Virus record (IMG/VR): IMGVR_UViG_3300028029_000002
Coordinates: 1-64,000 of that record
From: a virus
Length of the DNA stretch: 64,000 bases
Reading direction: 5' to 3' (one strand)
A program made the position numbers and the translations under genes. The number at the start of each line of letters is the position of its first letter. The first letter of the stretch is position 1. The notes beneath the pieces are model-generated. The model saw only the letters and a list, made by a program, of their open reading frames with translations, was not told the DNA's origin and searched no databases. Below, one piece after another: positions 4,992 to 58,156 of the stretch.

Positions 4992-7900
4992 ATTTCCACT
5001 TCCGTGTCATTCGAGTCTATTGCGGTAATTCCGTTCCATGTTTCTCCCTTAAAACTATTATCGGGCATATCAAGGTTACCTGTCTTGTTGATAAATATTC
5101 CGTTATCCCAATCGTATAATAATACTCCATTTTGTCCATACAATGTAACATATGGGCGGCTATTTATATACATTATATCAATTCCGGGATAGGGGTCTCC
5201 TATTACATCAGTGGGAATAATAGCGGTATCATGAGTTGCAAATCCATCGTCAGACAAATAAAGATATGCTCTATTCTTACTAATCGCCGCAAACAAACCG
5301 TTTCGCTGTGCGATATTATGTCCTGCCGACGTTATTGTAATTGGTATATCAAGCGGCTCATAATTGCCGGCCCATTTACACGGCCCCTCTAGCTCATCAA
5401 ATGAAATATAATTATACCCATTTCCACCTGGGGTGGGATCACTCATAATCCATCCCGTGTTTCTAAGTCTAGCCAAGGGGGCGACGGCCCAGTTCGGGCA
5501 TACTGCAATGGCAACATCATTGCTCGGTAAAGTACAACAAGCATAATTTGCGACTTGACAATTTCCACATTCTAAATCTTCAAGGTTACCTGAATATCCA
5601 ACTGGTATAGTATTGTGTAGTACCCGCATGGGGACGGTGTCTCCATAAGGAGGATGATAAACTGCGTTGCCTGCTTGGGAACCACTTTTCGCATCAACAG
5701 AACTGAGCAATACCCAGTATCCATGAATCTCCCATTTTGGATGCATGCCCAGTGCCGAGTAATACACCTGTATTCTTGCCCTTGCCCCATGTTCATATTC
5801 ATCCATGTGCTTCCCCGCGCATCTAAGCAAAAATTCCTTTTCGAGCCATACTGTTTTGCTCATGTTCGGCGTTGTGAAAACATATTTATCCTCAAATGTT
5901 TTCGAGCACTCCCAAGATATATCGCCGGAATTATATATTGCTACCATAGGTTCACAACTTCCGGGATGTACTTTATTAGAGGTTGCTGTTATTTTGATCG
6001 ATACACTTTTCCCACCCCCCGTATCGGGAGAGGCTTCTGCCCACCCATAAAGTTTGATATAAGCATAGTATGCCTTTTCATCATTTTCACGTGCCGCGAA
6101 ATCTAGAGTTATAGCGCCCCCGTTATAGCAATGGTTTCCTGGACGCGGCGGAGGGCATTTTTCTGTTTTTTGATACGCGTCCGGAAAATATGTTCTATCT
6201 CCCGGCTCCCCAGAAGATGAAAAGTTAAACGCCCCGCCAGCGGGATCGTTTAATATTGAATGGCCTGCAAAAATTTCGTTTTCGTTATCGTACCAACTAA
6301 GATACCGCGATGCCGGAATACGTTGGAATCCAGCATAGGTAGATTTTGACTTAACGGATTGACCTTTGTAAGCAAATGTAGCATCAACATCTCCACCAAG
6401 ATAGCGAGTACCTTCTGGATCAAACATCAACATTACTCCAGAAGCGTTGGGACTCTGCAATACACGACCGCCAGTCCTGCAATCATCCGGAGAATAGTCT
6501 GAACATATTGGTTCCCAATGATAGTGGTGATAATCTGAATATGCGGCAAATGGATCATATTTAACTGCTGTTCCAGAATATCCACTTAGATACAACCAGT
6601 AATGGCTTGTTCTTGTTCCAAATTGCAAACTAAAGGGGGCATCATATATAGGGATATAACGCATTAGCCATTCTTCTTCTTCTCCTGGTAACTGATGCCA
6701 ATATCCCTGAACGGGAGAAATGTCAATCCACGTCGGGTTCAATGCACCTATATTACGTGTAATATAAATTTTTGTGGTATATGATTTGTTTTCCGTGTGT
6801 ATCACGAATGCCACGATTCCACCGTTCTGTTCTTCTTCAACGGGTGGCTCCCACGGAGGTGGCGGCCACTCCGGGTCCCCTGGCGGGTCGCCCGGATCAT
6901 CAGGCGGCTCCCACGGAGCTTTGGGTTCTGGAATCTTTCCAACGACACCAAAGTGGCCGGGAAACGCGCCTTTCTCGGAGATGGCTTCTAATAGTAACGA
7001 ATAATTTACTCCGTCTGTCGAATAGTACATTCTGTGCAAGGCGTAACGAACTTGGTAACGAAGCCATGCTTCATTTGCCAGACTCGCGCTCACGGAAGCG
7101 AGAACAAATGACTCTAACTCTTGTGATGTATTACGAGTTCCGGGATAATGCGTAATAGCGGCTGTTCCGCTGTCTGGATTCCAGGTAGCTTGGGTGAGAA
7201 TATACGCGGCTACCCCACGGGCCAAGAGGCCAACCATTTCCTCTGAGGCCGAGTCATACTTGTACCAGGCTTGGCAAAATCCATTCAATGCGTCCGGAAC
7301 GAATGTTGAAAATGCAACGACACGCCCCCCTGTAAATTCAGTTGGCTCCAACACGCGTTTCTCTTCGAGTAGTGGTGTATTCCACGATCCCTCGACAGCC
7401 ACGGTATGTGTCATACCTCCGTAGTTTGTATCAGCCTTAGTGTTGTCTCTGTAGTCATCATGTCCACCCGTGAGGGCGGGTATCTCTACGAAATACCCGC
7501 TCTTTCTATCTAACCATGCAAGCACATCGGTTGCATTGATCGTCACGACGTTCCCGCCGCTGGGGGAATTCTCATACGAGATGGTATTACTCTCGCCAAG
7601 AAATACGGCGGTGCGGATCGACTCGTCTGCATAGTGATAACCAATCTCGAATATTAACATGACCGGTTGTTGATCTGCCAAGAAGTCCATCAGTTCCGTG
7701 CTACCGAATAACTTCAATCCGCTCAGCCCCGCTTTAACACGCAGGTTCAGACTCCCTCCGAGTATTAAATCAGTGACATCCATCTGCACGTTTGGGTTGT
7801 GAACGCTGACTCGATAGTTTGCATGCGAACTATACATGACTCCATCGTTACAACAGTACATCCTATCATCCGTCACCGCAAAGAAACTGCGCTGGCCGTC

Positions 7901-8761
7901 TGTTGGCGGGAACCGTAACGGTGTAGGGATCTCCCATGCTCTTCCGTATGTGCTCATGGTAATGGCGAGCATATTATTTCCATAGGCGTCACTTTCATAG
8001 ATGATGCCAACAGATTGTGGGGTAACAAACATGTTCGCGTTTCTCACTATGTGGTTTATATCCGTTTCTCCCGTAGCAACGGTGTAGTGATCCGAGTAAC
8101 GTTCGTTGATGTATATTAACGTGGCGACCATTGTTGTTTTCTTGATAGTCCAGGCCGCATTAATTCCTTGCGCCTCGGCGGCCTGATACGGGATACCTTC
8201 GCCGGAGATAAGCACAACGTCATGATCCTCACGTGCCTTTGCATCAAACGTATTTATCGCGTAAGGCCAATACACCTCAGACATTATGATGTCTGTACCA
8301 TTCCAACACCCCAAACGAGAAACGGAGTCAGAATGTCTAAAGACAAAATGCACTTTGTCCTTAGCCGCGACCCCGATTTTAACAATCGTGGAGGATGGTG
8401 TCGTTTTAAGTGTTGTTGCACCAGTTGTCAGGTCAATTGCATATAACCCGTTGTTGTGTGTGAAGTATCCTAGTTTTTCTCCATCCGCAACACCCAGATT
8501 GCCGGGAGGCGCACCAATGTCGTATGAGCCAGAGGTAACAGTTGTCCCATCCCATCGCCAATAGTCAATCGAATTCTCATTTATTGCTAAGACGATCACT
8601 GTATTAGAATCGTATAAACCTATCGCGCTCACATTATCCGGGACGGCTGTGGCTGATGCGTTCCAAGAAAAACCAAACTTTTCGAGGATCAACTTCGACT
8701 GCGTGTCCCCAGGGCCGGACAATAATTTATCTATTTGAGCCTGTGTTAAATCTGTAATCAA
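4988..8761 (-). CDS. large tail tip / tail-associated protein (1257 aa) with internal Pro-rich linker
   Basis: Second-largest ORF, two genes downstream of the tape measure. Linker PEPKAPWEPPDDPGDPPGDPEWPPPPWEPP is encoded at about 6840-6935. Confidence 0.65.
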   Translation of the reverse strand: MITDLTQAQIDKLLSGPGDTQSKLILEKFGFSWNASATAVPDNVSAIGLYDSNTVIVLAINENSIDYWRWDGTTVTSGSYDIGAPPGNLGVADGEKLGYFTHNNGLYAIDLTTGATTLKTTPSSTIVKIGVAAKDKVHFVFRHSDSVSRLGCWNGTDIIMSEVYWPYAINTFDAKAREDHDVVLISGEGIPYQAAEAQGINAAWTIKKTTMVATLIYINERYSDHYTVATGETDINHIVRNANMFVTPQSVGIIYESDAYGNNMLAITMSTYGRAWEIPTPLRFPPTDGQRSFFAVTDDRMYCCNDGVMYSSHANYRVSVHNPNVQMDVTDLILGGSLNLRVKAGLSGLKLFGSTELMDFLADQQPVMLIFEIGYHYADESIRTAVFLGESNTISYENSPSGGNVVTINATDVLAWLDRKSGYFVEIPALTGGHDDYRDNTKADTNYGGMTHTVAVEGSWNTPLLEEKRVLEPTEFTGGRVVAFSTFVPDALNGFCQAWYKYDSASEEMVGLLARGVAAYILTQATWNPDSGTAAITHYPGTRNTSQELESFVLASVSASLANEAWLRYQVRYALHRMYYSTDGVNYSLLLEAISEKGAFPGHFGVVGKIPEPKAPWEPPDDPGDPPGDPEWPPPPWEPPVEEEQNGGIVAFVIHTENKSYTTKIYITRNIGALNPTWIDISPVQGYWHQLPGEEEEWLMRYIPIYDAPFSLQFGTRTSHYWLYLSGYSGTAVKYDPFAAYSDYHHYHWEPICSDYSPDDCRTGGRVLQSPNASGVMLMFDPEGTRYLGGDVDATFAYKGQSVKSKSTYAGFQRIPASRYLSWYDNENEIFAGHSILNDPAGGAFNFSSSGEPGDRTYFPDAYQKTEKCPPPRPGNHCYNGGAITLDFAARENDEKAYYAYIKLYGWAEASPDTGGGKSVSIKITATSNKVHPGSCEPMVAIYNSGDISWECSKTFEDKYVFTTPNMSKTVWLEKEFLLRCAGKHMDEYEHGARARIQVYYSALGMHPKWEIHGYWVLLSSVDAKSGSQAGNAVYHPPYGDTVPMRVLHNTIPVGYSGNLEDLECGNCQVANYACCTLPSNDVAIAVCPNWAVAPLARLRNTGWIMSDPTPGGNGYNYISFDELEGPCKWAGNYEPLDIPITITSAGHNIAQRNGLFAAISKNRAYLYLSDDGFATHDTAIIPTDVIGDPYPGIDIMYINSRPYVTLYGQNGVLLYDWDNGIFINKTGNLDMPDNSFKGETWNGITAIDSNDTEVEI
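7815..7832. repeat. palindrome copy 1 (TAGTTTGCATGCGAACTA), intragenic
   Basis: Read directly. Lies inside the 1257-aa ORF, where it encodes SSHANY. Confidence 0.85.
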
Positions 8762-9183
8762 GCAGGAGCCTCCAAGTCAACTAACTCTATAGCCACATCG
8801 AATTTATTTAACAATGGATCAAGGTTGTTTATATCAGATATACTTTTAAGCGCAACGCTCTTGATATACCCGGAATGATCCACTCCGTCGTCGACATGTA
8901 CATTGTCTATGAATTCTAACACTTTTCCAAGCAATGTACATAAGTAGTCGTATTCCGCTCGTGTAACCCGTAGCATGAATCGCCAGTCATGATGCACAAC
9001 CGGTAATCCATTCGAGTTTACAACACGGGCCACGTATGTATACCCGGTGTGAGAACGGCTCACGCCTATTTGGGCAGTTGGTATGTCACTGCGTTTAGTA
9101 GCTTTCCACCTTGCCGCTGGTGCATTGTCAATATCGCGTGGAACCAGTGGATCATCTAAGTGTATATGGCACTTAACAGTCAT
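8758..9183 (-). CDS. distal-tail-like small protein (141 aa)
   Basis: Immediately downstream of the tape measure, with overlapping stop/start codons. Confidence 0.5.
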   Translation of the reverse strand: MTVKCHIHLDDPLVPRDIDNAPAARWKATKRSDIPTAQIGVSRSHTGYTYVARVVNSNGLPVVHHDWRFMLRVTRAEYDYLCTLLGKVLEFIDNVHVDDGVDHSGYIKSVALKSISDINNLDPLLNKFDVAIELVDLEAPA

Positions 9184-12100
9184 TAACTTAACTCCAATTC
9201 CTTAGCTATGGATAATCCTTCGACGGCTCCGGCACGGGCATCGTTGGTGTTCACCGAGACGTTCACACTTCTGACATCCTGGCTAACAATCGCTCCTAGT
9301 ATCTGTTGAAGCACGCTGATAACTCGTGGGTCTCCGCTATTAGCCAGTGCGTTCAGATTCGAGTTCGTCAAAGGCCCAACTCTCTGCTCGAAAGTCTTGG
9401 TCAGATTGCTATTCAGGACATACTCACCCGGATGAAGGACAGCCGTGCCACCCTCACCGGTGTATCCGCCGTTCGCGTAATATTTAATCCGCCCCGTGCT
9501 CACGCCACCGCCCAATGCGCTTCTTAATCTGCGGGCCCCGGCTGCGGCGGAGCGCAATGACGCACTGAGCGAACCAAATATCTCAACGCTCCGCGCCCCC
9601 TCATTGGTAATCTTGCTCACGCCAGCCTGGAAGTTCTGGACTGTCATTTGGATTGCCTGGATTGCTCGCTGTTGTGCATAGGTTAACCGTAGGTGCTGCT
9701 GAGCATTTTGCAGGGATCGTTGCTGACGATTGAGTTGGTTCATCGTCATCGCTCGATTGATCGCATTTAGACGCATGCGCAAAGCCGTTTCCTGCTCGAA
9801 GTATGCGTTTTGCCGAGCGAAACGGGTACTCTCCCATTCCATTCTTTTGTTATGCCGATCTTGCGCTGTGTTGAAGTCTTCTTCTGCCCATTGGCGTTGT
9901 ATGTCTAAGCGACTTCTCTGTTCATCTATCTGTGATTGGCCAAGCGCAAACTTGATAGTCCCTCTGTCCTGTTGCCGGAGCAAGGCCCTCCGTTGCCGTC
10001 CCGTGGCGTATTTGAGGTTTTCCTGTATATCCTCCATAGCCCACGCAAAATCGAGCTGGGACGTATTTTGTCTAAAATTCAGATCGCTTTCAGACCAACC
10101 AATTCGCGTCATGCTACGGTTAAAATTCTTTAGCAAGTCATCCATTCCCCATTGCCATTGAATTTCGAATCGGCTCCACGAATCTTGCATTTGTTCGCGC
10201 TGCTTCTGGACGCCGATGTTGAAGAGTTGATCTTGTATATCCAATTTCTCCGGGACAAACTTCAAGTTGTCGGCTAAGTCCTCGAATTGCAGGCTCAGCT
10301 TAAACATGGAGTCTCGATACCCCTCAGCCGCACTTTCGATTTGAAGCTGTTGTAATCCTTTTCCCTCAACGGCCCCGAACGCAGGCATCATTCCGTCACC
10401 CGATCCAAACTTCTCTATGGCGTCCAGCCCTTTGTGGGCAACCTGTATCGGGATAGCATCTTGAGCGAATCCGACAAAAGCGTTGTGCATTGCGGCCTCG
10501 AATGTACCACCTTGTCCTATGTACGACTCTATGCCTTGATACTGTTCACCATCAACTTTGAACCCATATCGCATTGCTTGCCCTAACTCCGTGTCAGAAC
10601 TTGGCAAATTTTCATATCCGATCTGGAATCCGCGAGTTGTCTGTTTCTGGAAAATTGCAGGCATTGATTCCCCACCGCCGAACCAGCTTTGCAATACATC
10701 CGGGAGCGCATCCCATAAGCTCTCGGATTTCATCTTGCTTGCGGCCCATGGATTCCCGGATTGTACTTGCGTGAGCATACGCATCGCGTCGTTTTGCTTC
10801 TGGACAAACTCTTCGTCTACTGGAAGTGTCTGCATACCATACAGGGGGTCTACGCGCCCCGGTACTGCGACCTCCATTCCAGTGACCAAACTTTGCACCT
10901 CTTTAGTCAATAGCGGAAGCGTGTTGAACATTTGCGCTTCGCTTCTGACCAGGGAATCTCTCTGGCTTTGCAGTGGCAACTGTCCGGCTTGAGCAACAAA
11001 AGAATCGTTGTAAGTTAGGCCAAGCGAGCCGAGTGCGTTTGCTGTACTGTAATATTGCGCAAGACCGGCTCGTTCAGTGACGCTCTGGTTTTCTTGAGAA
11101 AAGTCTTCAATAGACTTTGTGACAACTTGTCCCATTCCCTGTTTTGCGCCTGCGTATTGTAGGAAACCGGACATAGCTTGTGGAAGCATGCCTTTAATTG
11201 ACATGTTTTCGTAAGCCGATCCGGTGAATGCTTGTTTGAGGAAATCCAGTTGCGCCGCTTCTGTAGTCTTTCCTTCTCCCATTGCCTGAACCCAGGACAA
11301 ACTCATTTGATATGTAGCTTCGGGAGAAAGGCCAACCAGTCTTGTGTCTAAGACATTACCAAGCATCGTCCCAATTTCAGCCCCCCTGGACTGAAATTCA
11401 TTTCCGGGTACAGCTCTCCGCATACCAGTTGTTGCGACATTTCCCCACAACGATCCGGCTATTTGCAATCGTTCGTCTCTCATTTCTCCGGTTGCGCCAC
11501 CGGAAATTCCAACACGGAGTGATTCAAATTCCTTTCCCCCACGCGAACCGAACATGTACGACCGTGTGGCACCATTTACATTACCGGTTGATTCAAAGTC
11601 CTTTTTTATGTCAGTCCAGTATGGTAAAGCCGCATCATTGTACGCGGATGTATAATTTCCTTGTTTTGCATATTCTCTAGCTACAAACAGACGGTTTGCT
11701 GGCGATGCGTTTCCAGCCGCAACCTCAGCTTTCATTTTATCTGTGTCTTTTGCTTCCCCGGCGACCCGTAACCCTCCGAGCGTTAGGCCGGTCAGAGTGG
11801 TAGCGGCTAATCCGATTGGCCCAGCTGATCCGGCTATCATTGGAAGCATAGATGCAAGATTAGCAGCAACCAACCCAGTACCAATTGCGGCCCCACCTAT
11901 ACCGAGAACATCAGATACAGTTTGACTCCCAAGCCCATCACCGCCAAGCATGCCATTCGCGCCAGCCATTATGTATCCACCGGTGCGCATGCGAGACATT
12001 TTCATCTGTTGTAAATTTTCGACGACGTTCTGGCTACCTCTATCTATACCTGCGCCTCCCATCATACGATAGGCGTTCATTTGGTTTTGATACTGTTGAT

Positions 12101-15100
12101 ACTGTTCCCCGCCGCCAATCAGCGGTTGCAGAAATTGTCTGAACATCCGGGAAGTAAAGAACAGATCGGAACCCAATCCGGTGCGCGGATTTTTAAGTCG
12201 CTCGAAGAATCCTTTAATCCCACCACGTTCCGGTTTATCCCCGAACATACCTATGCCGAGTGAGGCAACATCGCCACGTTCTACAAGTTGTCTTTCCTCA
12301 TCGGACATCTCCCCCGCTTGCCCGGCAATCTCTTTATATTTCCTGAACACTTCGCGCCCGCGTTGAACCTCAGCAACTTCTTCTTTTGTGAGCTTGCGTT
12401 TGTTATTCTCCAAACTCTTGCTCATCTTTTCTAGGTTCTCTACCCACCCGCGCATTACGGGGGTTGCTTTTTTAAGTAAGGCTACGAACTGCTCATCGGT
12501 CTGCGTTTGCGGGCCGTCTATTCTTCTCTGTGCCGATTGCTGAGCGAAGCGGGTCTCTAAACTTGACATAACATCAGGCGATAGCACATTGGAAAACTTT
12601 CTCGCTAGAGTCATGTCGTCTTTTGATACTTCGCCGTTCAGCAATTTGTCGCTGAGAGCGGTGGCCATAGCAAGTGTTTCAGGATTCACCTCCACCTGCA
12701 CGCCACGCGCACCCCCGGATGTAGTCTTTGTCTTGGAGATGCGCCCGCGTATAACGCCACTTGGTTGAGTTGTTTCTGCCGTTGCCGTTTCCACCTCTGT
12801 AGCTACGGCCTCTGTATCCGGGGCGGTGAATTTTTTAGTTGCCGCTTCGAGGTATCGTTTGCGTATGTTTTCTTTTAGTGCCCCGATCTGTTCCGCCATG
12901 CCCGGTATGCCCGTGAACCCCGGCCCGACTTTTTGCAAGTCGCCAAGTGTCAGGGAGTCCGCGTTCTTGAGTAACACGTCAAGCGTTTCTTGTGCGGCGG
13001 CCAAGCGTTCCTCCGAGACTTTCGGCGCGGGTGCGGCTGAGGATTTTGCGTCGCTACCAACGCTCTGTATACGCCGGATACGCCACTGCTCTTCAAATTT
13101 GGCGACCTCTTTTTCCAGTTCCGGCATGCCCTTGGCGCCAGCTTTCGCCGCAGTGATTTCATTATAATTCAGAGAGTCGGAACGCTCGCGTAAGCTCTGC
13201 ATCATAACGTTAGCTGCTTCCTTGCGCTCCGGGGATACATCAACACGGTTCTGCGCCGCGTCTATCACTTGTTGTTCGTATCGCGCTTTGATTTCAGCGA
13301 CCGCCTTTGGGTCTAATGCGCTCTCAACTATTTTCAACGCGGACAGATCTTTCCTAGATAACACATCTCTACTTTGCAATGTGCTCAGAAGTCCTTGCGC
13401 ACGCGCGGCGTCCTGTTGGCTTATCGGGGCTTGTTTCTTTTCCTTCCCCGTTATGGCGGCATCCAATCTCTGTTGTTTGTACAAGGCCTGGATTTCTTCC
13501 AGGTCTGCCAGGCTTACCGCGTCGCCCTGTTCCTTAAGGACGGCCATATCGGTACTTGTAATCTTCTTGCGCTGACGCAAGGCCGCCACTAACGCCGCCG
13601 CTCGCTTCTGTTGTTCGGGCGCCGGCGGGGGCGGCGCGTCAAGAGCTTTTTGCATGTCGTCAATGCTCAAGTACAACGGCGACATTTGTTTCTTCTGCGT
13701 GGTTGTGAGCGGAGTATAGTTCGTGGGCTTTGATTCAGGCCCTGTGATCGCGGCGTTTAATTCCTGTTTGTCGTATCGTTCTTGGATAGCGTCGAATCGC
13801 TCCTGTCCAATAACGCCGATGTACTTCTTTAATGCCGTGATGTCCTTCGATCTGATCTTGTCGCGTTCCTCTAATGTGGAGGCTAACGACAAAGCCATGT
13901 TGCTTATATCTTCCGGTATCTCTTTCACGGCTTCTGCTCCTGCCGTGTATTCCCCGCTCAATATGGCCTCGCTCGTTTTCTGGAAGCTCGGCAATAGTTT
14001 AGCCATAGGCTCCGCAAATGACTCTATGCTTTTAGCTAAATCCTCGAATCCGGCTTCACGCATGGTCTCCGCTGTGGCAAGGATGGCTTTCGAGGAAGTT
14101 TCTAATCTCTCGGTCATCCTGAACCAATCTTGTTTCCCTTGCTGGGAAGTCGGCTCGCCGATAGCCATCATCTCTTGAGCACGTCGTATCTGCCATTGAT
14201 ATGATTGCGCCATCGCGCCACCCTCGCCAAATTGAGAGTACGCGATCTTGCGGGTCATACCGGCATCCATGTACGGATTGCGCCCTGTAGCCGCCAGTAT
14301 ATTTGCTAGGGTATTGGAAGCATTGACTGTGTGAATCGAAGGGGGCTTCACATTGCTGACAAGATCGACAGCCGCGTCAAATTGCCCGGCAACAACAGAT
14401 TTAGTTCTCCGTGCAAGGCCGGGATCGAATTGCCCGGATGCCATTGCGGATAAGCCTTTTAGGAAACGAGGCCCTACGCTGTTGTAATCCACGACGGGTA
14501 ACGTATACCGTCGTGCCATCTCGAAAATCTGAGCCATTATACCGCCCAATTGTTCACCGATGTCGTTCTGTTGCGCGTTTATCTGGGCTTCGGGTTGGGG
14601 TATGTTCTCCGGGGCTGGCGTAGCTGTCACCGCCTGTGTTTCGTCCGGTGTGGGCACAGTGAAATTGGATGCCTTGAAACCAGCAGCTGCGTCTACGGGT
14701 ATATTCTTTCTTTCCTCTGCGCGTTCGTTCAGCAGGACGTTCCGCCGTCTACCGGGATCAAAGCTGGGAGCAGCAGACGCGGAGGCTATTCTGGCAACCT
14801 CGTCCGCTGGCAGTTTCTCTAAATTGCGTAATAGTTTGGCCTCCCCAGTGGAAATTCTGGCATCGAGCATTTCTCCGGGCAAGTTCCTGTTATAGTATTG
14901 CGGAGTAGCGTTGACCACTTCATCTTTCCACACTCCACCGGTTTCATTCATAGCCCTATCAGCTATCGCGTCTAATACCGTACGTGGTACTACCCTTTCT
15001 ATCAAGTCTTTGATTGTTTTAACAACCGGATTGTCTGACAAATGCTCTGTGCCAATAGACATCGCCAATTCTTCTGGGGAGTATGGGAATCGTTGGTTTA

Positions 15101-18100
15101 TCTTGCCCTCTGCTATAGGTGCTTTAATTGCTTTGATCATGCTTCTGACGTAATGCCCTGCATCATCGCCGCTCGTCATACCCCCTATAATATCCCGAAT
15201 GAACCCGGATTTGAAGCCGCCTAACTGCATGCTGATGATATTATCTTGCGGCCCCATCGCACGAACGGACTTGCCCTCGAATGGGTTAAAGAACGTTCTG
15301 GCCGTTCGGTACAAGCGGGATATGGCATCTTCCTCTCGCTTAGTCAGCCCTTTCAAGTCCAAAGACCGCTGGTATAAGTTTGAAGCCTTTGCAATGTCTT
15401 CGTAGGCCTCAAGCATCTCTTTACCCTTGAGTCTCCCTTCGTCAACCGCGTTGAGAAATGCGCCGTTCAGTACGCGCAGGAAGGTATAAGTTGGCCCCAT
15501 ATTACGCTTAGCTTTAACGTAATCTATTGATCCTTGACTGATCTGTGCTGTTGTCGCAAAGAGTTCGTCTGGATCGTTGTTGACGTATTCACCGTCCCCG
15601 TTTCTCTTCACGAGTTTGAGCGACTTAAGGAATCGCTCCATTGGCGTGCCTTGTTCTGACTCGATCAGATCGTTCATGTCGCTGTAAATTGCCGACATCT
15701 GACTACCCGGAGCCGGATTCTCAGAGGCCATCCGCGCTAACGCCCCGGCAAATCGCTCGTCGTCAGATATGAGGTGTAACATTGCCTTGTCATCGGATGG
15801 ATCAACGCCGAAGGTTGCCCCACGTATTCCAGCACGGAATAATGTAACGTATCGATGCGCCTGCTTTATCGTGTCGACCCCTTGAGGTAACGCGCCCATC
15901 TCTAGCAATCTAGCCAAACTGTGTTTCTCAACTTGCCGGGCAGTCATGGCTTTCCCGCCAATATGCGCCTTGCGTAAATCGCCAGTCTCTTTGTCTAGCG
16001 ACACATTGCGCGTGAATTGAAGCAGGGCGGTGTCGAAGTCAACATCCGCCGACGCCGGTTCGTAAATTGAGTCAGAGGCCATTGTGTGTAACTGTTGGGT
16101 CATCGGGGCGTTCATCAATTCGAGAGCTATGTCAGATAATCCCTCTACCTCAAACGGATTGACCATACGCATTGGCAGAACTGAGTACAGAGGATCGGTT
16201 TCCGGTCTGCGGAAGAATGTTACCGCTTCGCCGTCAAGTTGGCTGTATAAATCGGACAGGATGTTCTGTTGCTCCGCAACATTCTCGGCTCGTGCCAGTT
16301 GCCCGCGCAGGCCGGGAACCATTTCTATCAGGTCTCGCGGCGGTATAAACACTCCACCTTCTGGCATGTTCATGTGGTATTGATAACCGACGTACAGCGC
16401 ATTGCGCAACTGCTTGTTTTGCACTCCGACATGTATGGCTTCTGTGTTAGCGAGTTCTTTCAATCTTGCGCGGTATTTGTCGACTCTGTCTATCTGATAC
16501 TCACCTTTGCTAGTCGTACTCGTCAGCAAACCAAACATCTCCCGGCTCGTACGTTCCAACTCTTCACCGGTTGCCGGATCAATGGTAGACATCTGCGCTA
16601 TTGCCGACAACGATGGCAGATAAACGTCGGTTCCCTCAAGGTGAATTGGGGCAACGGTGTCGAGTCCCTCGTATTTGCCTAGCAACTTCCTGAACAAGTC
16701 GGACGATCTGAAATTTGGCCCCTTCTTCTCGCGGATTTCATCCATCACTTCGTTAACAGTTTGAGCGGGAAGGGTCAGAATATGTTCGTCTTCCTTAACT
16801 GGGCTTCCCTCCATTATCTTGTTCGCCCTAATGATGGATGCGTTGGTCAGTTGCGCACGTCGTGCCTTGCGTTGTATCCCTTCGTACATTTCTGGGTTTG
16901 ACACTTTATACAGCATTGCCTCTTCTGAGTTCAATTGCGTGTTACCATGTGTAAACTCTGCCGTAACCGGGAACAAGGCGTCCATAGTCACGAACGAAAC
17001 TTTGTCTTGGTCTCCCATTTTGAGCGCGTATGATGCTGCCTGTGCGCCAGTCGTCAGGGAAATCTCCCCCTCGCCGGTCTGCGCTCGCTCGAAGAGTTGG
17101 CGCGTAGCCTCAATCATCTCTTCTTCGCTATAATCGCTGGTCAGGAAATCGTTAAATGTGTTGTCCCCGATGGCGTCAGCTACAGCCGTGGCAAATGAGG
17201 GCAGAGACTTTATGTCGTCTGATCCCAATACCATCGTCAGTCGTTTTCCGTCCTCACTCAACGCCTCCGCGTCACTCTCGCCAAAAAGCTCTTCTGCCAT
17301 TTCGTACGTGAGTGTACGCATATACGCCTTGATCCCCATGTGTTTGCTAGTAAAGTTTGAGGTGCGTGCTACCAGGGGCAGTGATATGGAAGCACCCTCA
17401 CCCTTGAAACCTTCCGAGGCGCGAAACTCTTTACTGTCTACGTTTAGCCCGACTTCCGAGTACGAGTTCCCCACAGCGAGATGCACGGGGACTTGTACGC
17501 TCTCACCCTTTTTCTGATCCCACTCCTTGCGGAAGCCTATGCGTATACGTCCATCGGCGGTACGGATTGTGTCACCCGATAGGAATTTATCATCCCAAGT
17601 GAATCCGTCTGGTACATCAAACCGTTTGTTCAATTGCGTTTCTGCCATCACTTGCTTGACGCCCTTCGGGAGGATGATATATCCCATACCCTGAGAGATG
17701 GCTCCGGTGTTTAGCACGGCCAGCCTATAATTATTCCCTCTGTTCGGGCGTGATGAAGACGAAGCTCCTTTGGTAACGCCAATCGCGCTTGTAATGCGGT
17801 CTTGCCTGCCAGCAGTCACCGCAAGTGGGCCTTGCGAGCGGAGGGCTTTCCATGCATCCTTTGCAAATTTCACGGCTTTGTACGACGGACGACCGATGAA
17901 ATATCGACCGCTTGCTGCTTTCGTCATGCCGGGGACTCTACTTAGATATTCATCCACAGGGAAGGCTACGATTCTTGATTCTTTGTCTCCGCCCTCCGTA
18001 TTTGTGTCGTTTGCTGGCCGGTACATAAGTCGACCAGGCTTTAGGTCTTGAATGTTTACGCCCCGCAATTGTATACTATTTGCATCCGTCCATGTCCTCA

Positions 18101-20445: not shown

Positions 20446-20456
20446 CACTTTTGGGA

Positions 20457-20738: not shown

Positions 20739-20758
20739 ATAGTTCGCATGCGAACTAT
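20739..20758. repeat. palindrome copy 2 (ATAGTTCGCATGCGAACTAT, perfect 20 bp)
   Basis: Read directly; intergenic between 20800..23091 and 20457..20726. Adjacent to hairpin ATGGGCTAC/GTAGCCCAT at 20757-20780. Confidence 0.9.
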
Positions 20759-20799
20759 GGGCTACATAACGGTAGCCCATAGTGCATACGAGAGTTAAG

Positions 20800-35758: not shown

Positions 35759-36175
35759 TTATTGGTCTCGTAACACTGCGTACTCTCTATAACTACTTAT
35801 CGCGGCCCAAAATTCCGCCTCGATTTCCGTAGTGGCCGCGCCGTTACTGCGTAGCACAAACGCATTTCGTGTGTGCTGTAGCGAATCCATAAAATGAATA
35901 TTCGCATCCTCGACACACTTCCCCACTTTGAATTGCTTGGCTTCTTTGATTAGACTGTCCATATCGTTCAAAATGTCGAATATCGGAACTTCATGATAAT
36001 TGTATTCATCCATAATAAACGATACTTGCTCATACGCGAGTTCTGTCTGAGTATAATAATCATCTTTGTTGCACTGCCTCTCGGAATTACCTAAAGCAAG
36101 TACTGTAAGTCCGGCTGTCGCCACCATCATCACGATTACAGCAACTATTAACATTAACACTTTAGTGCTTTTCAT
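35759..36175 (-). CDS. membrane-anchored protein (138 aa)
   Basis: RBS AGGAG. N-terminal TM segment VLMLIVAVIVMMVATAGLTVLAL. Confidence 0.6.
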   Translation of the reverse strand: MKSTKVLMLIVAVIVMMVATAGLTVLALGNSERQCNKDDYYTQTELAYEQVSFIMDEYNYHEVPIFDILNDMDSLIKEAKQFKVGKCVEDANIHFMDSLQHTRNAFVLRSNGAATTEIEAEFWAAISSYREYAVLRDQ

Positions 36176-36681
36176 TTGTTTTCTCCTGCTATCTTACGGA
36201 TTAGTTGTAATACGGTATGAGCTTCTTCTAACCGTGTACATAGTCCCTCTCTCTTTGCAACTACAGCGAGGGAGTATTTCTTGAAATCCCGTGTGGTATA
36301 GTCCCACTTCGCGTTATATTCAGCGTACAGTTCGCTGATGTCAAAGCCGATATATGGATACACCCAGCGCAGTCCATTGTGTCTGGCCGTTTGCTTGAGT
36401 GCATTCATATTACAATCCAGATGATACGCGCAGACCATACGATTGGCTATATATTTGCGGAGGTTGTAATGCACGTCTTCGTAGTGGCGTTCTCCTCGTG
36501 CGCACGGAGCATCTCTAGCGGGCTGTACCGCTCCGTAGACTCCATAGGCATTTGTGTCGGCTTCGACCGTGCATATAAAGGTCACGTCGCCTTCATCGTT
36601 GGTTTTGAGGCTTAATACAACGGGGTTTCTACTTAAAATGTCACGCGCCAACTCTACGTCGGTCAGGTGATTAGTTCGCAT
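36172..36681 (-). CDS. hypothetical protein (169 aa; start refined from ORF 36172..36762)
   Basis: ATG 36681..36679 is preceded by GGAG and lies in the centre of palindrome copy 3. The upstream part of the track ORF overlaps 36671..37117. Confidence 0.5.
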   Translation of the reverse strand: MRTNHLTDVELARDILSRNPVVLSLKTNDEGDVTFICTVEADTNAYGVYGAVQPARDAPCARGERHYEDVHYNLRKYIANRMVCAYHLDCNMNALKQTARHNGLRWVYPYIGFDISELYAEYNAKWDYTTRDFKKYSLAVVAKREGLCTRLEEAHTVLQLIRKIAGENK

Positions 36682-37117
36682 GCAAACTCCTACTCCTTTG
36701 ATACTCTTCCATTTCCCGCAATAATGTTTCTGCGGCTGTGTAATTGAGGGCCGGGGAACCATTATATCCCACCGTGCGCAATTTGGCGATCTGTTCGCCT
36801 GTTGCTAGTTTGACTCTACAATCATCATACAGTACACACTTGCCATTTGCTGGGTATCTTGCTGTATGTCCGTCCGGCCACTCTGCCATACGCGGGCTAA
36901 TCTTTACAAGTACTTCAAGCAAATCTTCCATGTGCATCAATGTCCCTAATCTATCGGCCTCGATAAATTCGTCGCCAATTTTCAGGTTCTTGAATAGGAT
37001 CATTACTTGGTCGTACACTGTGTACTGGCAATGGTCACACGCTATCGCCCCAGCCGTTTGTTCCATTATGCCGTTCCTGCAACGTGGGCACTCGCACCCA
37101 GCTTCCAACACTTTCAT
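36671..37117 (-). CDS. zinc-ribbon protein (148 aa)
   Basis: CxxC pairs CECPRC...CDHC; RBS AGGAG. Confidence 0.6.
   Translation of the reverse strand: MKVLEAGCECPRCRNGIMEQTAGAIACDHCQYTVYDQVMILFKNLKIGDEFIEADRLGTLMHMEDLLEVLVKISPRMAEWPDGHTARYPANGKCVLYDDCRVKLATGEQIAKLRTVGYNGSPALNYTAAETLLREMEEYQRSRSLHAN
36672..36689. repeat. palindrome copy 3 (TAGTTCGCATGCAAACTC; 2 mismatches to TAGTTCGCATGCGAACTA)
   Basis: Read directly. On the minus strand it contains the stop codon of 36671..37117 and the start codon of 36172..36681. Confidence 0.85.
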
Positions 37118-38427: not shown

Positions 38428-38709
38428 CCCACCTAGCAATAGGAAGGGACAATAAGAACACAAGCCGGGACGCCTGATGAGGGAAATACCCGTGAAGTTG
38501 TTCGACCACCACGTTGTGATACTCGCGTGGCTAAACAAGTCTAGTATCACCCCACGTTTCACAGGGTAGCGTGGTTAATCTTCACCCTGGTGTCGTTGTT
38601 CGCCGTTGACAAAGCTTCGGTCAACCGCGTGTAGTATCCAGAAGCCGTTGTGCTGATGCCTCACCGCAAGGGAGGAACAAGTAGGCATGACGCAACCATG
38701 GAGGTTGAA
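38428..38709 (+). ncRNA. conserved structured leader element, copy 1
   Basis: Shares blocks with 39529..39817: an identical 21-mer, the loop ACGCCTGATGAGGGAA and an identical 38-mer. At least three helices show compensatory differences between copies. Confidence 0.6.
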
Positions 38710-39511: not shown

Positions 39512-39528
39512 TTGGTGTTGGCATAAAG

Positions 39529-39817
39529 CCCACCTAGCAATAGGAAGGGCGTATATAGGACACTAGCCTGGGACGCCTGATGAGGGAAGTACCCAGGAAG
39601 CATGTCCGCACACCACGTATGTTCTGACGTGGCTAAACAATGTGCAGAACACCCCCACGTTCTATAGGGTAGCGTGGTTAATCTTCACCCTAGCGGATGT
39701 CCATCCAATCCATTGCAGAGATTACTCCGCTTGGCAATGTGTGCGTTAGGAGTTGCCGTGCTGATGCCTCACCGCAAGGGAGGAACAAGTAGGCACGGTA
39801 TGACCCAGGAGGTCGAA
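39529..39817 (+). ncRNA. conserved structured leader element, copy 2
   Basis: See copy 1. It precedes the RNAP-like gene directly and ends in GGAGGT-5 nt-ATG. Confidence 0.6.
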
Positions 39818-42097: not shown

Positions 42098-42397
42098 AAT
42101 CCTCCCCCCTGACACCGTGGGGGTCACAGCAAAGGTGTCGGTGCGCCGCATTGCGGTTCCTGTGCAACTCAGGATTAAAGCACCGTGTCGGTAGTCAAAC
42201 CGACGCTCAGGTTGGTGTAAGCAAGCATTTGCCGTGTCCTGACTTCCTGGGAAGCAGAACATAGCAAATGTGCGGTAGGACAACGGGACGATCTCCTGGG
42301 AGACGCGAAGTTGTTCCTGCCCGCTTGCACCAACCTGCCGCTCCACAGGAGTGGGGCCAGGGGTATGGTCAGCGATTGCGTAAGACCTCCTCCTTAA

Positions 42398-42441
42398 GGG
42401 GGATACAAGGTATAACGCAGCCTTGTATCCCCCGCTTTTTC
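42398..42441 (+). terminator. intrinsic terminator
   Basis: GGGGGATACAAGG-tataacgcag-CCTTGTATCCCCC followed by GCTTTTTCT. Confidence 0.75.
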
Positions 42442-42549
42442 TAAGGGACGGTGAACAGGCGGGCGCATGAAGCAGCTTGCCATATCACCGCCCCTTAGAA
42501 AAGGCCGGGAGGATCGGCCTATTATTCATTATAACCTGGGAGGTTTATT

Positions 42550-42855
42550 ATGTTTTCCATTAGCTATACGAAACATGGTGATGTTGAGACTGTGGTGTAT
42601 CAATGTGGCTGCGTGAAAGTCAACAATCAATTGCGTCGTTGTGCCGCGCATCAACGCGAGCACGAACGGCAAGTTGAGGCCAAACGCCTGCGCTTGCAAG
42701 CACGAGCCGTGCTGCACTTGCGCTCCCCACTGTCGTTTAGCGAGGGCGCATGGGTCGTCCGCACCCTCCGTGGAAAGAGTACTGTTGCGGAGTACCGCAA
42801 CCTCGTCACCCTGCACCGCACGCCGCGTGAAGCGGCGCGTGCGGTGTGTCATTAG
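42550..42855 (+). CDS. hypothetical protein (101 aa)
   Basis: RBS GGGAGG upstream of ATG. Confidence 0.6.
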   Translation: MFSISYTKHGDVETVVYQCGCVKVNNQLRRCAAHQREHERQVEAKRLRLQARAVLHLRSPLSFSEGAWVVRTLRGKSTVAEYRNLVTLHRTPREAARAVCH

Positions 42856-42973
42856 TCTGATTTGGGGGCGGGTAGCAATACTCGCCCCCAACCTTTTTCT
42901 CGGCCCATCACCCGCTGGTAGGCCGAGAAAAGGGCTGCTGTTCCTGCCCCTCACACACCATATAGGAGATATT

Positions 42974-43387
42974 ATGACAACCAAGAAGCAAGTATTCACC
43001 ACTATCGCCGTCGAGCGCGGCGATATTATCACCGGCGTTTACAAGACGCCGGGGCGTCCCAAGCAAACCGTGACTCTCGAAGTTGAAGCGGTCGTGAAAA
43101 CCGACCGTCGAGAGTACGTGATCGGCACCCCCCTGTCCGGGATGGACTGGGCGGGTTCTCGTGTGGCCTTGAAGCCTCAGTGCTTCTGGGCCAGCACGCT
43201 AGAGGTGTCGAAGGGCACGGCGGATCTCCGCCCGTTGCCCGAAAACCTGTTCGTTTTCGCCTCCTACTCCGCGTCCTTCGGGATGATGGAAGAGGTAGAA
43301 GATGAAGACGTTGCGGAAGCCGAGATTCAGGGCGGTGTCCGCATTGAAACCTTGCTCGTCCCGTTCGCGGAGATGAAGCAACTGTAG
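42974..43387 (+). CDS. hypothetical protein (137 aa; start refined from 42641)
   Basis: RBS AGGAG-6 nt-ATG at 42974. Confidence 0.6.
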   Translation: MTTKKQVFTTIAVERGDIITGVYKTPGRPKQTVTLEVEAVVKTDRREYVIGTPLSGMDWAGSRVALKPQCFWASTLEVSKGTADLRPLPENLFVFASYSASFGMMEEVEDEDVAEAEIQGGVRIETLLVPFAEMKQL

Positions 43388-43397
43388 TACATACCCT

Positions 43398-43429
43398 ACA
43401 GCCCCCAGCAATTCACCGCTGGGGGCTGT
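43398..43429 (+). terminator. strong hairpin (terminator candidate, weak U-tract)
   Basis: ACAGCCCCCAGC-aattcacc-GCTGGGGGCTGT. Confidence 0.45.
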
Positions 43430-43443
43430 GAGGTGCGTATTAC

Positions 43444-43471
43444 TTGCACCCTGCGGGCGTTGTGCTATCAT
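43444..43471 (+). promoter_or_regulatory. sigma70-like promoter (-35 TTGCAC, 16 nt, TGc-TATCAT)
   Basis: Read directly. Palindrome copy 4 starts about 14 nt downstream of the -10. Confidence 0.45.
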
Positions 43472-43484
43472 TGTGATAGTACAT

Positions 43485-43502
43485 TGGTTCGCATGCGAAC
43501 TA
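43485..43502. repeat. palindrome copy 4 (TGGTTCGCATGCGAACTA) followed by TTTTT
   Basis: Read directly. Confidence 0.85.
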
Positions 43503-43744
43503 TTTTTAAGGCCGGAGCGTGCCTCCCTCTAGCACAGGGGCATGACGCTTGAGTACCGGCCAAAATCATTGCTAGGTGAGTGCTAGACACCCAGCAAGCG
43601 GTAGTGGCTTTCATCGCGGGTATCTGCCACCGTTTACACGGCAATCCTGTGTCCCGTCAGGTAAGCCACCCCGCACAAGGGCGACCGCGGCCCAATCGAG
43701 TTACCCCAGCCCCGTGGTGCAAGCTGGGATAAAAAGGAGAAAAG

Positions 43745-44062
43745 ATGGAATTTGTCAATCTAACACCTCATACGATCAATATTCACAACGAGAGCGATGA
43801 ACTCGTTCTCACCGTTCCCCCCAGCGGAAAAGTAGCGCGAGTAGCAGCCCCGCGTCGTCAGTTCGCCCAGATCGACGGCGTCGGCATCTACACCGTCGCC
43901 TACGGGGAGATCGAAGGTCTCCCCGCGCCCCAAGAGGGCGTCCGTTACATCACCAGCGGTCTCGTGCGCACTCGCGCCGACCGCAGTGATGTATTCTCCC
44001 CCGGCCCGCTGTTGCGGGACGAGGACGGTCGCCCGATGGGGTGCATCGGGCTGAATGGATGA
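43745..44062 (+). CDS. hypothetical protein (105 aa)
   Basis: RBS AAGGAG; preceded by a leader of about 270 nt. Confidence 0.65.
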   Translation: MEFVNLTPHTINIHNESDELVLTVPPSGKVARVAAPRRQFAQIDGVGIYTVAYGEIEGLPAPQEGVRYITSGLVRTRADRSDVFSPGPLLRDEDGRPMGCIGLNG

Positions 44063-44406
44063 AATTCTGGCATTACGCCAGAGTGCCAGACACCGTCATG
44101 GCCAGCGATGAATACGCGCTGGTGGACGGTGAGTTCTGGTATTTTCCCGAACTCGACATCCCAGAGGAGGCAACGCGAGTTGTGTTCGCCGCCCCTGTGG
44201 GATACGGGTGGTGGAAAAGAGATCGGCGCGAACACCTGATCGTCATCGATGTTCCCGATGACACGCTGGTGTTTGCCGGGTTCCCCAGCCGCAAGCGGGT
44301 CAAGATGACCGCCCGCGAAGCGGCTCAGTTGCCTGTAGAAGTAACAACGGGCAACTGGGATGGGTACGAGGTCATCATTCCAGAGGATTTAGTACAGCGC
44401 GTCTAA
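44059..44406 (+). CDS. hypothetical protein (115 aa; start refined)
   Basis: ATGA overlap with the preceding stop. Confidence 0.55.
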   Translation: MKFWHYARVPDTVMASDEYALVDGEFWYFPELDIPEEATRVVFAAPVGYGWWKRDRREHLIVIDVPDDTLVFAGFPSRKRVKMTAREAAQLPVEVTTGNWDGYEVIIPEDLVQRV

Positions 44407-44428
44407 CCCACGCGCTGTACTTTTTTTT
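44392..44428 (+). terminator. intrinsic terminator
   Basis: GTACAGCGCG-tctaaccca-CGCGCTGTAC followed by TTTTTTTT. Confidence 0.8.
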
Positions 44429-49455: not shown

Positions 49456-49791
49456 ATGAAATACACCGATGTCGTAACCAACCATGCTCTTCCCACAAAC
49501 AACCTCGCCATCCACAGCACACGAAAGTCCGGGCACACGCCACCTACTCCACAATACATATCCGATGTAGCCAGTTCATACGAAGACGCAATTCGTATCC
49601 TAGACAAGTTCACATTGAATGTGCTAGACCCAACTATGCATGTCAATGGCGAACTACACATGCCAGTCGCCATCAAGCATGGCGGCGAAATCAACATCAC
49701 GGCAACTATGGGAATTACCATTCTCCAAGTTGCTTACAACGATGACGGATGGGTGCGAAGCATAGCGCGAACCATCAACACCATACCGTAA
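49456..49791 (+). CDS. hypothetical protein (111 aa)
   Basis: RBS AAGGAG. Confidence 0.65.
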   Translation: MKYTDVVTNHALPTNNLAIHSTRKSGHTPPTPQYISDVASSYEDAIRILDKFTLNVLDPTMHVNGELHMPVAIKHGGEINITATMGITILQVAYNDDGWVRSIARTINTIP

Positions 49792-49799
49792 GGAGAATA

Positions 49800-50276
49800 A
49801 TGACACTCAATATAGACGAAGAAATCAGAGCCATAGAATCAATGTTCCTCACTTCTGAACAGATAGAAGGTTACATCGATATGGCCCTTCACCCGAAAGA
49901 GGGCTGGCTTGACAACCTAGCATTCTCAAGCGCATGCATGGCATCGCAAATCAGAATGGAACGGTTCAAAAAAGGTTTTCCGTTAGAAAGCTTTGTCACT
50001 CAACGGGCCGCAACAGAGGCAGTTAAATGTCTCTATATGTCACAGCAAGACAAAGAGCGGGCACTGGCGATCATACGCGAGAGAACTATATCGCAAGCCA
50101 ATGTAGCAGTCGCGTTTGCGAGAGCAAGTTCACTCCTATCAATTCTGGACGAGATCGAAGAACTCGACCTCGACCACAACGATTACGGCGAATTGTTAAG
50201 AATCTTATATCACACTCCGCCATGCGAATACGCCGATGTATTAAAGTCCGCAAAGCGTAAATACGTACGGAATTAG
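49800..50276 (+). CDS. hypothetical protein (158 aa; start refined)
   Basis: RBS AAGGAG-5 nt-ATG. Its stop codon TAG is the first triplet of palindrome copy 5. Confidence 0.6.
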   Translation: MTLNIDEEIRAIESMFLTSEQIEGYIDMALHPKEGWLDNLAFSSACMASQIRMERFKKGFPLESFVTQRAATEAVKCLYMSQQDKERALAIIRERTISQANVAVAFARASSLLSILDEIEELDLDHNDYGELLRILYHTPPCEYADVLKSAKRKYVRN

Positions 50277-50291
50277 TTCGCATGCAAACTA
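50274..50291. repeat. palindrome copy 5 (TAGTTCGCATGCAAACTA)
   Basis: Read directly. The 5' flank CGGAAT is shared with copy 6. Confidence 0.85.
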
Positions 50292-56791: not shown

Positions 56792-56797
56792 AATTAT

Positions 56798-56870
56798 GCG
56801 GGTATAGCCTAATGGATAAGGCGACTGTCTTCTAAACAGTAGAGTGCAGGTTCGAGTCCTGCTACCCGTA
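56798..56870 (+). tRNA. tRNA-Arg (anticodon UCU)
   Basis: Cloverleaf read by eye: acceptor GCGGGTA/TACCCGT (one G-U), D stem GCCT/AGGC, anticodon stem ACTGT/ACAGT with loop CTTCTAA, T stem GCAGG/CCTGC with loop TTCGAGT, discriminator A. Confidence 0.85.
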
Positions 56871-56894
56871 CATCCTAGTAAAGGAGAAAATATT

Positions 56895-57717: not shown

Positions 57718-57718
57718 C

Positions 57719-58141
57719 ATGTCACAAATCAAACTGAGCGACAATGTATACAACATCACCAACATTTATAACGAAAACCTTCACGTCGTCATCGAAACAG
57801 AATCCGGCACTATCTTCTGGGCATTTAACGACGACAACACATACAAAGAAATATACGCACATTTCAAAGATATGCTACATCAGTCGCCGAGTGAATTCAT
57901 GGCAACATTCGGGGATAAAACCCCAGAAATGGCTTGGCGACTAGGTATTGCTCACGAACAGGTGCGCCGCACTAATGACTACTCCGGGATCACAGAATTA
58001 GATAGCCCTCTTTACTTCTTCTCATCCGATCTCGACGATTACGAATTCGAGGGATACAGAGAAGAGGAAACAGACGAGTGGGGTGAAGCTCCATTCCCAT
58101 TCGAGATCACCGAAACGTCAGAAATCTACGCGCGGAATTAG
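57719..58141 (+). CDS. acidic hypothetical protein (140 aa; start refined)
   Basis: ATG lies 1 nt after the preceding stop. Its stop codon TAG is the first triplet of palindrome copy 6. Confidence 0.55.
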   Translation: MSQIKLSDNVYNITNIYNENLHVVIETESGTIFWAFNDDNTYKEIYAHFKDMLHQSPSEFMATFGDKTPEMAWRLGIAHEQVRRTNDYSGITELDSPLYFFSSDLDDYEFEGYREEETDEWGEAPFPFEITETSEIYARN

Positions 58142-58156
58142 TTCGCATGCGAACTA
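58139..58156. repeat. palindrome copy 6 (TAGTTCGCATGCGAACTA, perfect)
   Basis: Read directly. Confidence 0.9.

Follow-up and report, generated by a model that had tools for sequence, protein, structure and literature searches.

The DNA stretch analysed here, referred to as the window, covers positions 1 to 64,000 of the IMG/VR virus record IMGVR_UViG_3300028029_000002 and carries dispersed copies of an 18-bp palindrome, TAGTTCGCATGCGAACTA. The window is part of a larger phage genome. Its parent sequence is the ENA metagenome contig ERZ27262693 k141_1023144 (80,656 bp), and because the ends of this contig share a 141-bp overlap, the whole genome was rebuilt, in continued window numbering, as a circle of 80,515 bp. 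An identical Logan contig is present in a second assembly. Eight copies of the palindrome were found around this circle. They are symmetric, they lie mostly at gene junctions, their perfect form is also found beside marR genes in bacteria, and no MarR gene could be detected in the phage itself.

The initial annotation had listed six copies in the window and considered their chance recurrence negligible. A search for TAGTTCGCATGCGAACTA allowing up to 2 mismatches recovered all six, at 7815, 20740, 36672, 43485, 50274 and 58139, and 100 dinucleotide-preserving shuffles gave 0.01 matches on average, none of them reaching six. A seventh copy did not appear in the window even when 3 mismatches were allowed. 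Extension of the motif search to the complete genome, as had been proposed, revealed two further perfect copies outside the window, at 65354 and 75200. Five of the eight copies were scored as perfect. The copies are as follows.

Copy 1, 7815..7832: TAGTTTGCATGCGAACTA, 1 mismatch; intragenic, in a 1257-aa (amino acid) open reading frame (ORF; 4988-8761, minus strand), where it encodes YSSHANY
Copy 2, 20740..20757: perfect, 0 mismatches, within a 20-bp palindrome (20739-20758); in a 73-nt intergenic gap
Copy 3, 36672..36689: TAGTTCGCATGCAAACTC, 2 mismatches; its end overlaps the stop codon of a 148-aa gene lying upstream
Copy 4, 43485..43502: TGGTTCGCATGCGAACTA, 1 mismatch, with TTTTT after it; within 357 nt of structured non-coding sequence (43388-43744)
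Copy 5, 50274..50291: TAGTTCGCATGCAAACTA, 1 mismatch; its first TAG is the stop of the gene at 49749-50276
Copy 6, 58139..58156: perfect, 0 mismatches, within a 22-bp palindrome (58137-58158); its first TAG is the stop of a 140-aa gene (57719-58141)
Copy 7, genome position 65354 (L079 2647-2664), outside the window: perfect; at the junction after a 186-aa gene, 2 nt past its stop
Copy 8, genome position 75200 (L078 16991-17008), outside the window: perfect; inside a RecD2-like helicase gene

The motif was described as a symmetric 22-mer, AWTAGTTCGCATGCGAACTAWT (in full letters, AATAGTTCGCATGCGAACTATT), with an 18-bp perfect dyad as its core and TAGTTCGCA as its half-site. The perfect 20-mer claimed at copy 2 was confirmed, and copy 6 proved to be a perfect 22-mer. 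When both arms of all copies were folded onto one half-site (16 arms), the composition was T15 A15 G16 T16 T16 C13/T3 G16 C16 A16, the core varying at half-site position 6 alone (T in place of C in 3 of 16). In the flanks, the first base is A or T in 15 of 16 arms and the second base is T in 13 of 16. The 9-mer half-site is confined to the palindromes, with the sole exception of a stray variant 9-mer, TAGTTTGCA, at 6624. This organisation is as expected of a MarR operator, namely a dyad of about 16-20 bp made of two half-sites one helical turn apart. The gaps between the eight sites around the circle range from 6.8 to 15.9 kb (coefficient of variation 0.33); this spacing is evener than random placement (P = 0.002; smallest gap of 6.8 kb, P = 0.0004), a post hoc statistic that is suggestive only.

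The placement of five window copies at gene junctions, as first annotated, holds for copies 2 to 6. On the complete genome, six of the eight copies are junction sites and copies 1 and 8 are intragenic. Random placement of an 18-mer touches non-coding DNA at a rate of 9.4%, so that six of eight corresponds to P = 1.6e-5; with only the four unambiguous non-coding or boundary copies counted, our own estimate at the same rate is roughly 4e-3. The features that immediately adjoin the sites are listed below.

20759..20778, minus strand: GC-rich hairpin GGGCTAC-N6-GTAGCCC, one base upstream of copy 2 on the transcribed strand
36172..36681, minus strand: 169-aa orphan gene (protein MRT...) that uses the central ATG of copy 3 as its start and has a GGAG 5 nt before it
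36671..37117, minus strand: 148-aa gene reading through copy 3 and ending in SLHAN and its stop codon
43444..43480, plus strand: promoter-like sequence abutting copy 4, TTGCAC-16-TATCAT overlapping the extended -10-like TGTGATAGT
58165..58216, plus strand: long hairpin, 8 nt past copy 6, with TTTTCTCT after it

The gap of copy 2 separates a 763-aa gene (stop 20800) from an 89-aa gene (start 20726) and contains, in order, the GC-rich hairpin, the palindrome and the ribosome-binding site of the next gene; the pairing of the hairpin may extend into the left arm of the palindrome. A second, independent gene call also placed the start codon of the 169-aa gene in the middle of copy 3. At copy 4, the palindrome would span about +1 to +25 relative to the promoter-like sequence, which agrees with a promoter at consensus level only and is absent from the promoter-scan calls; consensus scans for sigma-70 promoters and terminators showed no enrichment over shuffles. 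The gene that follows copy 5 starts at 50316 and is preceded by AAGGAG. The hairpin downstream of copy 6, together with TTTTCTCT, looks like an intrinsic terminator. The central ATG of copy 7 opens an orphan 168-aa ORF (MRTIYDN...) without Shine-Dalgarno sequence. The T-runs and neighbouring hairpins reported at copies 2 and 4 were seen again on inspection, and TTT follows copies 2, 7 and 8.

Some further observations concern the surroundings of the sites. The central ATG of copy 6 opens a putative 39-codon ORF, MRTNTKNQEGEHEQEVLTAFLLGFLSATIVAGIIYLIIP (58147-58266, plus strand), which has a hydrophobic segment and overlaps the terminator-like hairpin. Copy 8 is in frame within the RecD2-like helicase gene, where an internal start would yield a 455-aa product including the helicase core. 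A family of extended -10-like sequences (TGTGATACAAT, TGTTATACT, TGTATACTAT) occurs in intergenic gaps on the coding strand, at 20447, 31637 and 38298 (minus) and at 43472, 45353 and 59305 (plus), one member abutting copy 4; the family suggests transcription by the host sigma-70 holoenzyme. Spread of the copies by gene duplication was rejected on the grounds that the flanking genes are not paralogues, and a restriction or methylation explanation was dropped, GCATGC and CATG not being depleted.

The distribution of the exact 18-mer in bacteria was then considered. It was found in 25 GTDB species-representative genomes and 46 metagenome contigs, giving 71 loci picked by the 18-mer only, with no gene criterion. 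In 53 of these 71 loci a MarR-family ORF lies at most 300 bp from the 18-mer, mostly at 0-24 bp, with the palindrome on its 5' side; among the loci without such an ORF, several are truncated by contig ends. The bacterial instances thus stand at or upstream of marR genes, as autoregulatory operators do. NCBIfam assigns the neighbouring proteins to the MarR family, in which they form at least five sequence clusters with less than 45% identity between them. The loci come from Alphaproteobacteria, Actinobacteria, Companilactobacillus, Riflebacteria/Spirochaetes and an Enterobacterales-like organism, and the clusters are the following.

Large alphaproteobacterial/actinobacterial cluster
Companilactobacillus cluster: site between marR and an ABC-transporter gene
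Riflebacteria/Spirochaetes cluster: one riflebacterial locus (L026) has a perfect copy on either side of marR
Enterobacterales-like organism (about 52% GC): site flanked by a marR-ClC operon and by pqqU
High-GC singleton

The left arm of the palindrome is directly overlapped, in the loci from Alphaproteobacteria, by a promoter with the -35/-10 pair TGACAA...TAGATA. As a rough control, 32 viral loci with the 14-bp core and other flanks were inspected, and none of them had a MarR gene nearby. In seven bacterial loci (L006, L008, L022, L027, L052, L055 and L061) the central ATG is apparently the marR start, the protein beginning with MRT. The -10-like box of these loci ends 6-7 nt upstream of the start, which would suggest leaderless marR mRNAs. 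A solved structure closely related to these MarR proteins was not found, and the 12-bp core had no match in the bacterial literature searched, the only paper containing it being a eukaryotic one on NRF1; for these reasons the operator class seems to be uncharacterised. A by-product of the analysis is therefore the definition of a widely distributed MarR operator, AWTAGTTCGCATGCGAACTAWT-like, which would include the start codon in some bacterial genes.

The reader of the sites was sought in the phage. Two MarR hidden Markov models (HMMs), custom-built from 6 and from 47 sequences, were run unfiltered on the six frames of the complete genome and gave no MarR homologue (best E = 1.3), and Pfam found no MarR among the genes flanking the sites. 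A cognate MarR gene was thus not detectable in the 80.5-kb phage genome. More generally, Pfam, PHROGs and PDB-sequence searches of about 50 proteins detected no DNA-binding, ParAB, integrase, repressor or RNA polymerase (RNAP) family. The two readers put forward in the initial annotation found no support. The ribbon-helix-helix (RHH) protein at 32769-33104 (111 aa) has a sub-threshold NikA-like Pfam match (E = 0.04), a model with a predicted local distance difference test score (pLDDT) of 50 and no link with the motif; its first motif is plausibly predicted as strand-helix-helix in an overall model of low confidence. As for the phage RNAP, neither the 3506-aa nor the 807-aa ORF gave a significant Pfam hit or any match among PHROGs and PDB sequences, and a polymerase could not be confirmed. 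Homologue searches with the 168-aa and 169-aa proteins that start at the centres of copies 7 and 3 returned essentially the query only, with one marginal match for the 169-aa protein (E = 7.6e-4).

MarR dimers bind dyads of 16-20 bp, their recognition helices entering consecutive major grooves and their wings the flanking A/T-rich minor grooves, and MarR-type repressors usually leave the DNA on a small-molecule or oxidative signal. On this basis, the interpretation that we put forward, with confidence no better than middling, is that the sites are dispersed operators of MarR-type specificity, read at transcription-unit boundaries by a MarR-family dimer of the host. The host is the likeliest source of such a repressor because the phage has no detectable MarR gene; binding, this origin and the regulatory consequence are what we infer from the sequence data. 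The reader would be a winged-helix repressor, most probably the host's, acting as a symmetric dimer in which each subunit would contact one half-site TAGTTCGCA and the A/T-rich flanks. The arrangement of the sites suggests how it could act. Most lie at boundaries of gene blocks: one is just downstream of the promoter-like sequence, two have the start codon of the following gene at their centre, where the dimer could occlude it, three coincide with the stop codon of the preceding gene or come directly after it, and two adjoin terminator-type hairpins. The bound dimer would either prevent initiation or hold up polymerases reading through from one transcription unit into the next, and progress of the phage programme would in this way be tied to the state of the repressor.

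Several observations weigh against this interpretation. The sites are conserved to an extent (five of eight perfect) that is more typical where the phage itself supplies the regulator, two sites are deep inside genes (the 1257-aa ORF and the RecD2-like helicase), and promoter-like sequence adjoins one site only. The near-regular spacing hints at a genome-wide, non-transcriptional role. Most of the phage proteins are orphans, among which a cryptic phage-encoded reader may exist, and the existence of a host MarR protein of this specificity is presumed. MarR operators are also very numerous, and the recurrence of exact matches may partly reflect a dense sampling of palindrome space; against this caveat, each of the independent lineages led to MarR, and none of them to a different family of regulators.

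If the host MarR protein does bind, the phage gene blocks would be subordinate to a host sensor of small molecules or oxidative stress, or this sensor would be sequestered. A more specific proposal, which we regard as tentative, is that a phage without a regulator of its own has placed eight host MarR operators near-regularly around its genome, either for gating by a ligand-sensing host repressor or as a sponge that titrates it. With gating, the phage would eavesdrop on the chemical state of the host through a stress repressor; with a sponge, the replicating phage DNA would titrate the repressor and the host MarR regulon would be de-repressed. The host MarR reading would also provide a handle for host prediction in a phage whose proteins are almost all orphans. 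In any case, sequence identity with dozens of independent bacterial loci ties an otherwise anonymous repeat to a concrete family, MarR, and makes the proposal directly testable.

The palindrome could be proposed to act in RNA rather than in DNA, as a 7-bp stem with a CAUG loop serving as a weak bidirectional intrinsic terminator or as an RNase processing site at operon junctions. Copy 4, with its stem followed by TTTTT, fits a terminator-like pattern, copies 2, 7 and 8 are followed by TTT, and stronger hairpins adjoin copies 2 and 6 at junctions. However, the predicted RNA folds at copies 1, 3 and 5 are no stabler than those of shuffles (z = +0.15, +0.46 and +0.29, respectively), and the significant folds at copies 2, 4 and 6 stem from the adjacent hairpins. 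On the transcribed strand the variants of copies 1 and 5 create A-C mismatches, which disrupt the pairing, and those of copies 3 and 4 give G-U pairs, in agreement with the earlier remark that the variants are not consistently G-U-compatible. Two copies are within long genes, no Rfam family was found over any site, and the stable GC-rich stem with U-tract of a Rho-independent terminator is lacking, copy 4 alone fitting the pattern. The symmetric flanks, the strictly paired half-sites and the unsupported RNA folds favour a double-stranded DNA site read by a symmetric dimer. The occurrence of the same sequence upstream of bacterial marR starts also suits DNA recognition, and the 22-bp symmetry is consistent with it. 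The earlier preference for a DNA-level site of a dimeric regulator is therefore upheld, and an RNA-level element appears decidedly unlikely. Spacer-less perfect palindromes can also extrude as cruciforms, and the sites could in principle be hairpin promoters for a virion-packaged RNAP, as in phage N4, the 3506-aa protein recognising the extruded hairpin. The size of this ORF is indeed that of the N4 virion RNAP. PHROG and PDB-sequence searches gave it no match, however, and in Pfam it reached only a sub-threshold similarity (E = 0.0098) to a death effector domain. The hairpins of N4 promoters carry a loop of 3 nt, and these promoters are directional and found in the early region only. A hairpin formed by the present palindrome would have a 4-nt loop, and the sites are symmetric, present on both arms and in some cases inside late genes, which makes this explanation highly improbable.

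A phage-encoded dimeric protein without detectable homology could also read the sites, in the manner of those phage regulators that bind at many dispersed places in their own genome. The uniformity of the sites is what would be expected of a dedicated phage regulator, and two genes start exactly at the centre of an operator, a situation typical of autoregulated regulators that is also found at bacterial marR genes. Candidates are the orphan 168-aa protein starting at the centre of copy 7 (P0015), whose N-terminus is helix-turn-helix-like by eye and whose single-sequence AlphaFold model, of low overall confidence, has two C-terminal helices (pLDDT 77-87) that form a possible RHH; the product of the 169-aa gene starting at the centre of copy 3; and the RHH-like 111-aa protein with its predicted strand-helix-helix motif. 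Two RHH dimers could read an 18-bp dyad, as at the Arc operator. Against such a reader, the identity of the 18-mer with operators in at least five MarR clades would be a coincidence, none of the candidates has a family-level match, both proteins starting at a site centre are orphans without homologues, and the structure models of the 168-aa and 111-aa proteins are of low overall confidence; a reader of this kind is doubtful, although it is the strongest of the alternatives. The evenness of the spacing, the two intragenic sites far from junctions and the presence of sites on both arms whatever the direction of transcription could instead indicate an architectural or chromosome-level site, acting in compaction, partition of a plasmid-like state, replication or packaging, for which the centromeres of phage N15 are a model. 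In N15-type centromeres the palindromes are accompanied by ParA/ParB (SopA/SopB). Dispersed palindromes are present here, but ParA, ParB and other segregation or condensin-like families were not found among the scanned proteins and the precomputed Pfam hits. The spacing statistic is post hoc and the strong enrichment at junctions is not expected for a purely architectural site; we consider this role unlikely.

The host MarR reading was also compared with known systems. Dispersed dyad repeats are known in phages, so far without reader or function. The nearest published counterpart is in Cluster O mycobacteriophages, where a 17-bp dyad repeat of unknown function, TGTTCGGNNNCCGAACA, is present in more than 30 copies (PMC4351075). 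Both repeats are invariant inverted repeats scattered over a phage genome (of about 70 kb in Cluster O), partly in short gaps and partly intragenic on both transcription arms; both have been read as sites of a dimeric protein, and they share a GTTCG...CGAAC core (PMC4351075). They differ in copy number (eight here), in the spacing of the half-site core (5 nt in Cluster O, 4 nt here) and in the outer bases. The Cluster O repeat is reported as absent from host genomes (PMC4351075), whereas the present site is identical to bacterial marR operators, and recognisable DNA-binding proteins are encoded by Cluster O phages but were not detected in this phage. In function, the model is also similar to the stoperators of Cluster A mycobacteriophages (L5, Bxb1), which are repressor sites that block elongation as well as initiation (PMC9283540, PMC6550527). 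The resemblance lies in the many copies of one site across a phage genome, mostly in short intergenic spaces, as for the eight copies described here with six at junctions. However, stoperators are asymmetric 13-14-bp sites with a biased orientation, in contrast to the perfect dyad with symmetric flanks of the present site, and they are read by a monomeric, phage-encoded immunity repressor of a temperate phage, where a MarR-type dimer is probable here. No repressor or integrase family was detected in the scanned or precomputed proteins, a weak negative because the proteome is largely orphan.

The CtrA boxes of alphaproteobacterial phages (TTAA-N7-TTAA), which are read by a response regulator and in some cases accompanied by a phage-encoded CtrA, offer a parallel in that multiple motifs of a bacterial regulator lie at phage promoters or junctions and a coupling to host physiology has been proposed (PMC9437464); the family here would be MarR and the phage has no copy of the regulator. 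MarR-type regulators are encoded by a cyanophage (PMC9692554) and by LUZ100 (PMC10134795), whereas in the present phage the DNA sites alone are apparent. A further likeness is with bacterial MarR autoregulatory operators, which share the identical 18 bp and the A/T-rich flanks, overlap the -10/+1 region or the start codon and, in some loci, use the central ATG as start (MRT), as at phage copies 3 and 7. One or two copies stand beside marR in bacteria, compared with eight dispersed copies and no marR in the phage. The palindrome therefore departs from the defining features of stoperators, Cluster O repeats, intrinsic terminators, N4 promoters and N15-type centromeres. At the level of its sequence it corresponds to a MarR operator, without a cognate gene in the same genome. 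The feature is real and non-random; dispersed dyad operators being already known, what is unusual is the identity with bacterial MarR operators in a phage without detectable MarR.

The absence of the motif from related phages had been named, together with a lack of protein binding and of associated transcript ends, as what would speak against the proposal. Three long contigs found via portal homologues (L004, L005 and L081) indeed lack the motif, and no recurring dyad of any kind was found in them, but these relatives are very distant (portal 44-48% identical). At this identity, the absence points to a lineage-specific addition and not to a lack of function. At the junction orthologous to that of copy 2, the relatives have a GC-rich hairpin only. 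Exact 18-, 16- and 14-mer scans of IMG/VR gave unrelated single-copy matches only and no dispersed multi-copy pattern in other viral contigs.

The phage is very divergent. No close relative was revealed when INPHARED was searched by megablast and tblastn and IMG/VR was scanned with the portal, neither database gave a nucleotide match or a useful protein match, and most of the proteins match no family in the Pfam, PHROGs and PDB-sequence searches. The genes form two arms. The leftward arm, from about 38.3 kb, includes ribonucleotide reductase, portal, structural genes, the 3506-aa orphan ORF and an amidase, and the rightward arm, from about 38.6 kb, includes many orphans, an RNA ligase, a tRNA-Arg, an AAA_24 ATPase, SSB and a primase, then DnaB, the RecD2-like helicase and an MT-A70 methylase. 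They run towards each other and meet at about 77.86 kb. Two genes mentioned above are placed as follows.

9183-19703, minus strand: 3506-aa ORF of N4-virion-RNAP-like size, with the sub-threshold Pfam match described above
56798-56871, plus strand: tRNA-Arg gene, anticodon TCT, in the rightward arm

Minor observations were made on the rest of the window. The contig join lies inside it, at positions 62708-62848, where the ends of the MEGAHIT contig share their k-mer overlap of 141 bp. Two directly repeated stretches of about 300 nt (38415-38713 and 39516-39821; blocks 86-92% identical, 1.1 kb apart) span the leaders and first codons of two consecutive rightward ORFs. The repeat has a hammerhead-like CUGAUGAGGGAAAUACCC...GAAG core with no Rfam match, and the Logan assembly breaks within it, at 38679. 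A GC-rich island (39674-44400; 57-62% GC versus about 49%) includes the orphan 807-aa ORF and three strong terminator-like hairpins (42398-42433, 42862-42891 and 44391-44421). Finally, two other perfect palindromes, CTATTTCATGAAATAG and GCGCCATTGCAATGGCGC, are present in one copy each, at 4571-4586 and 41531-41548.

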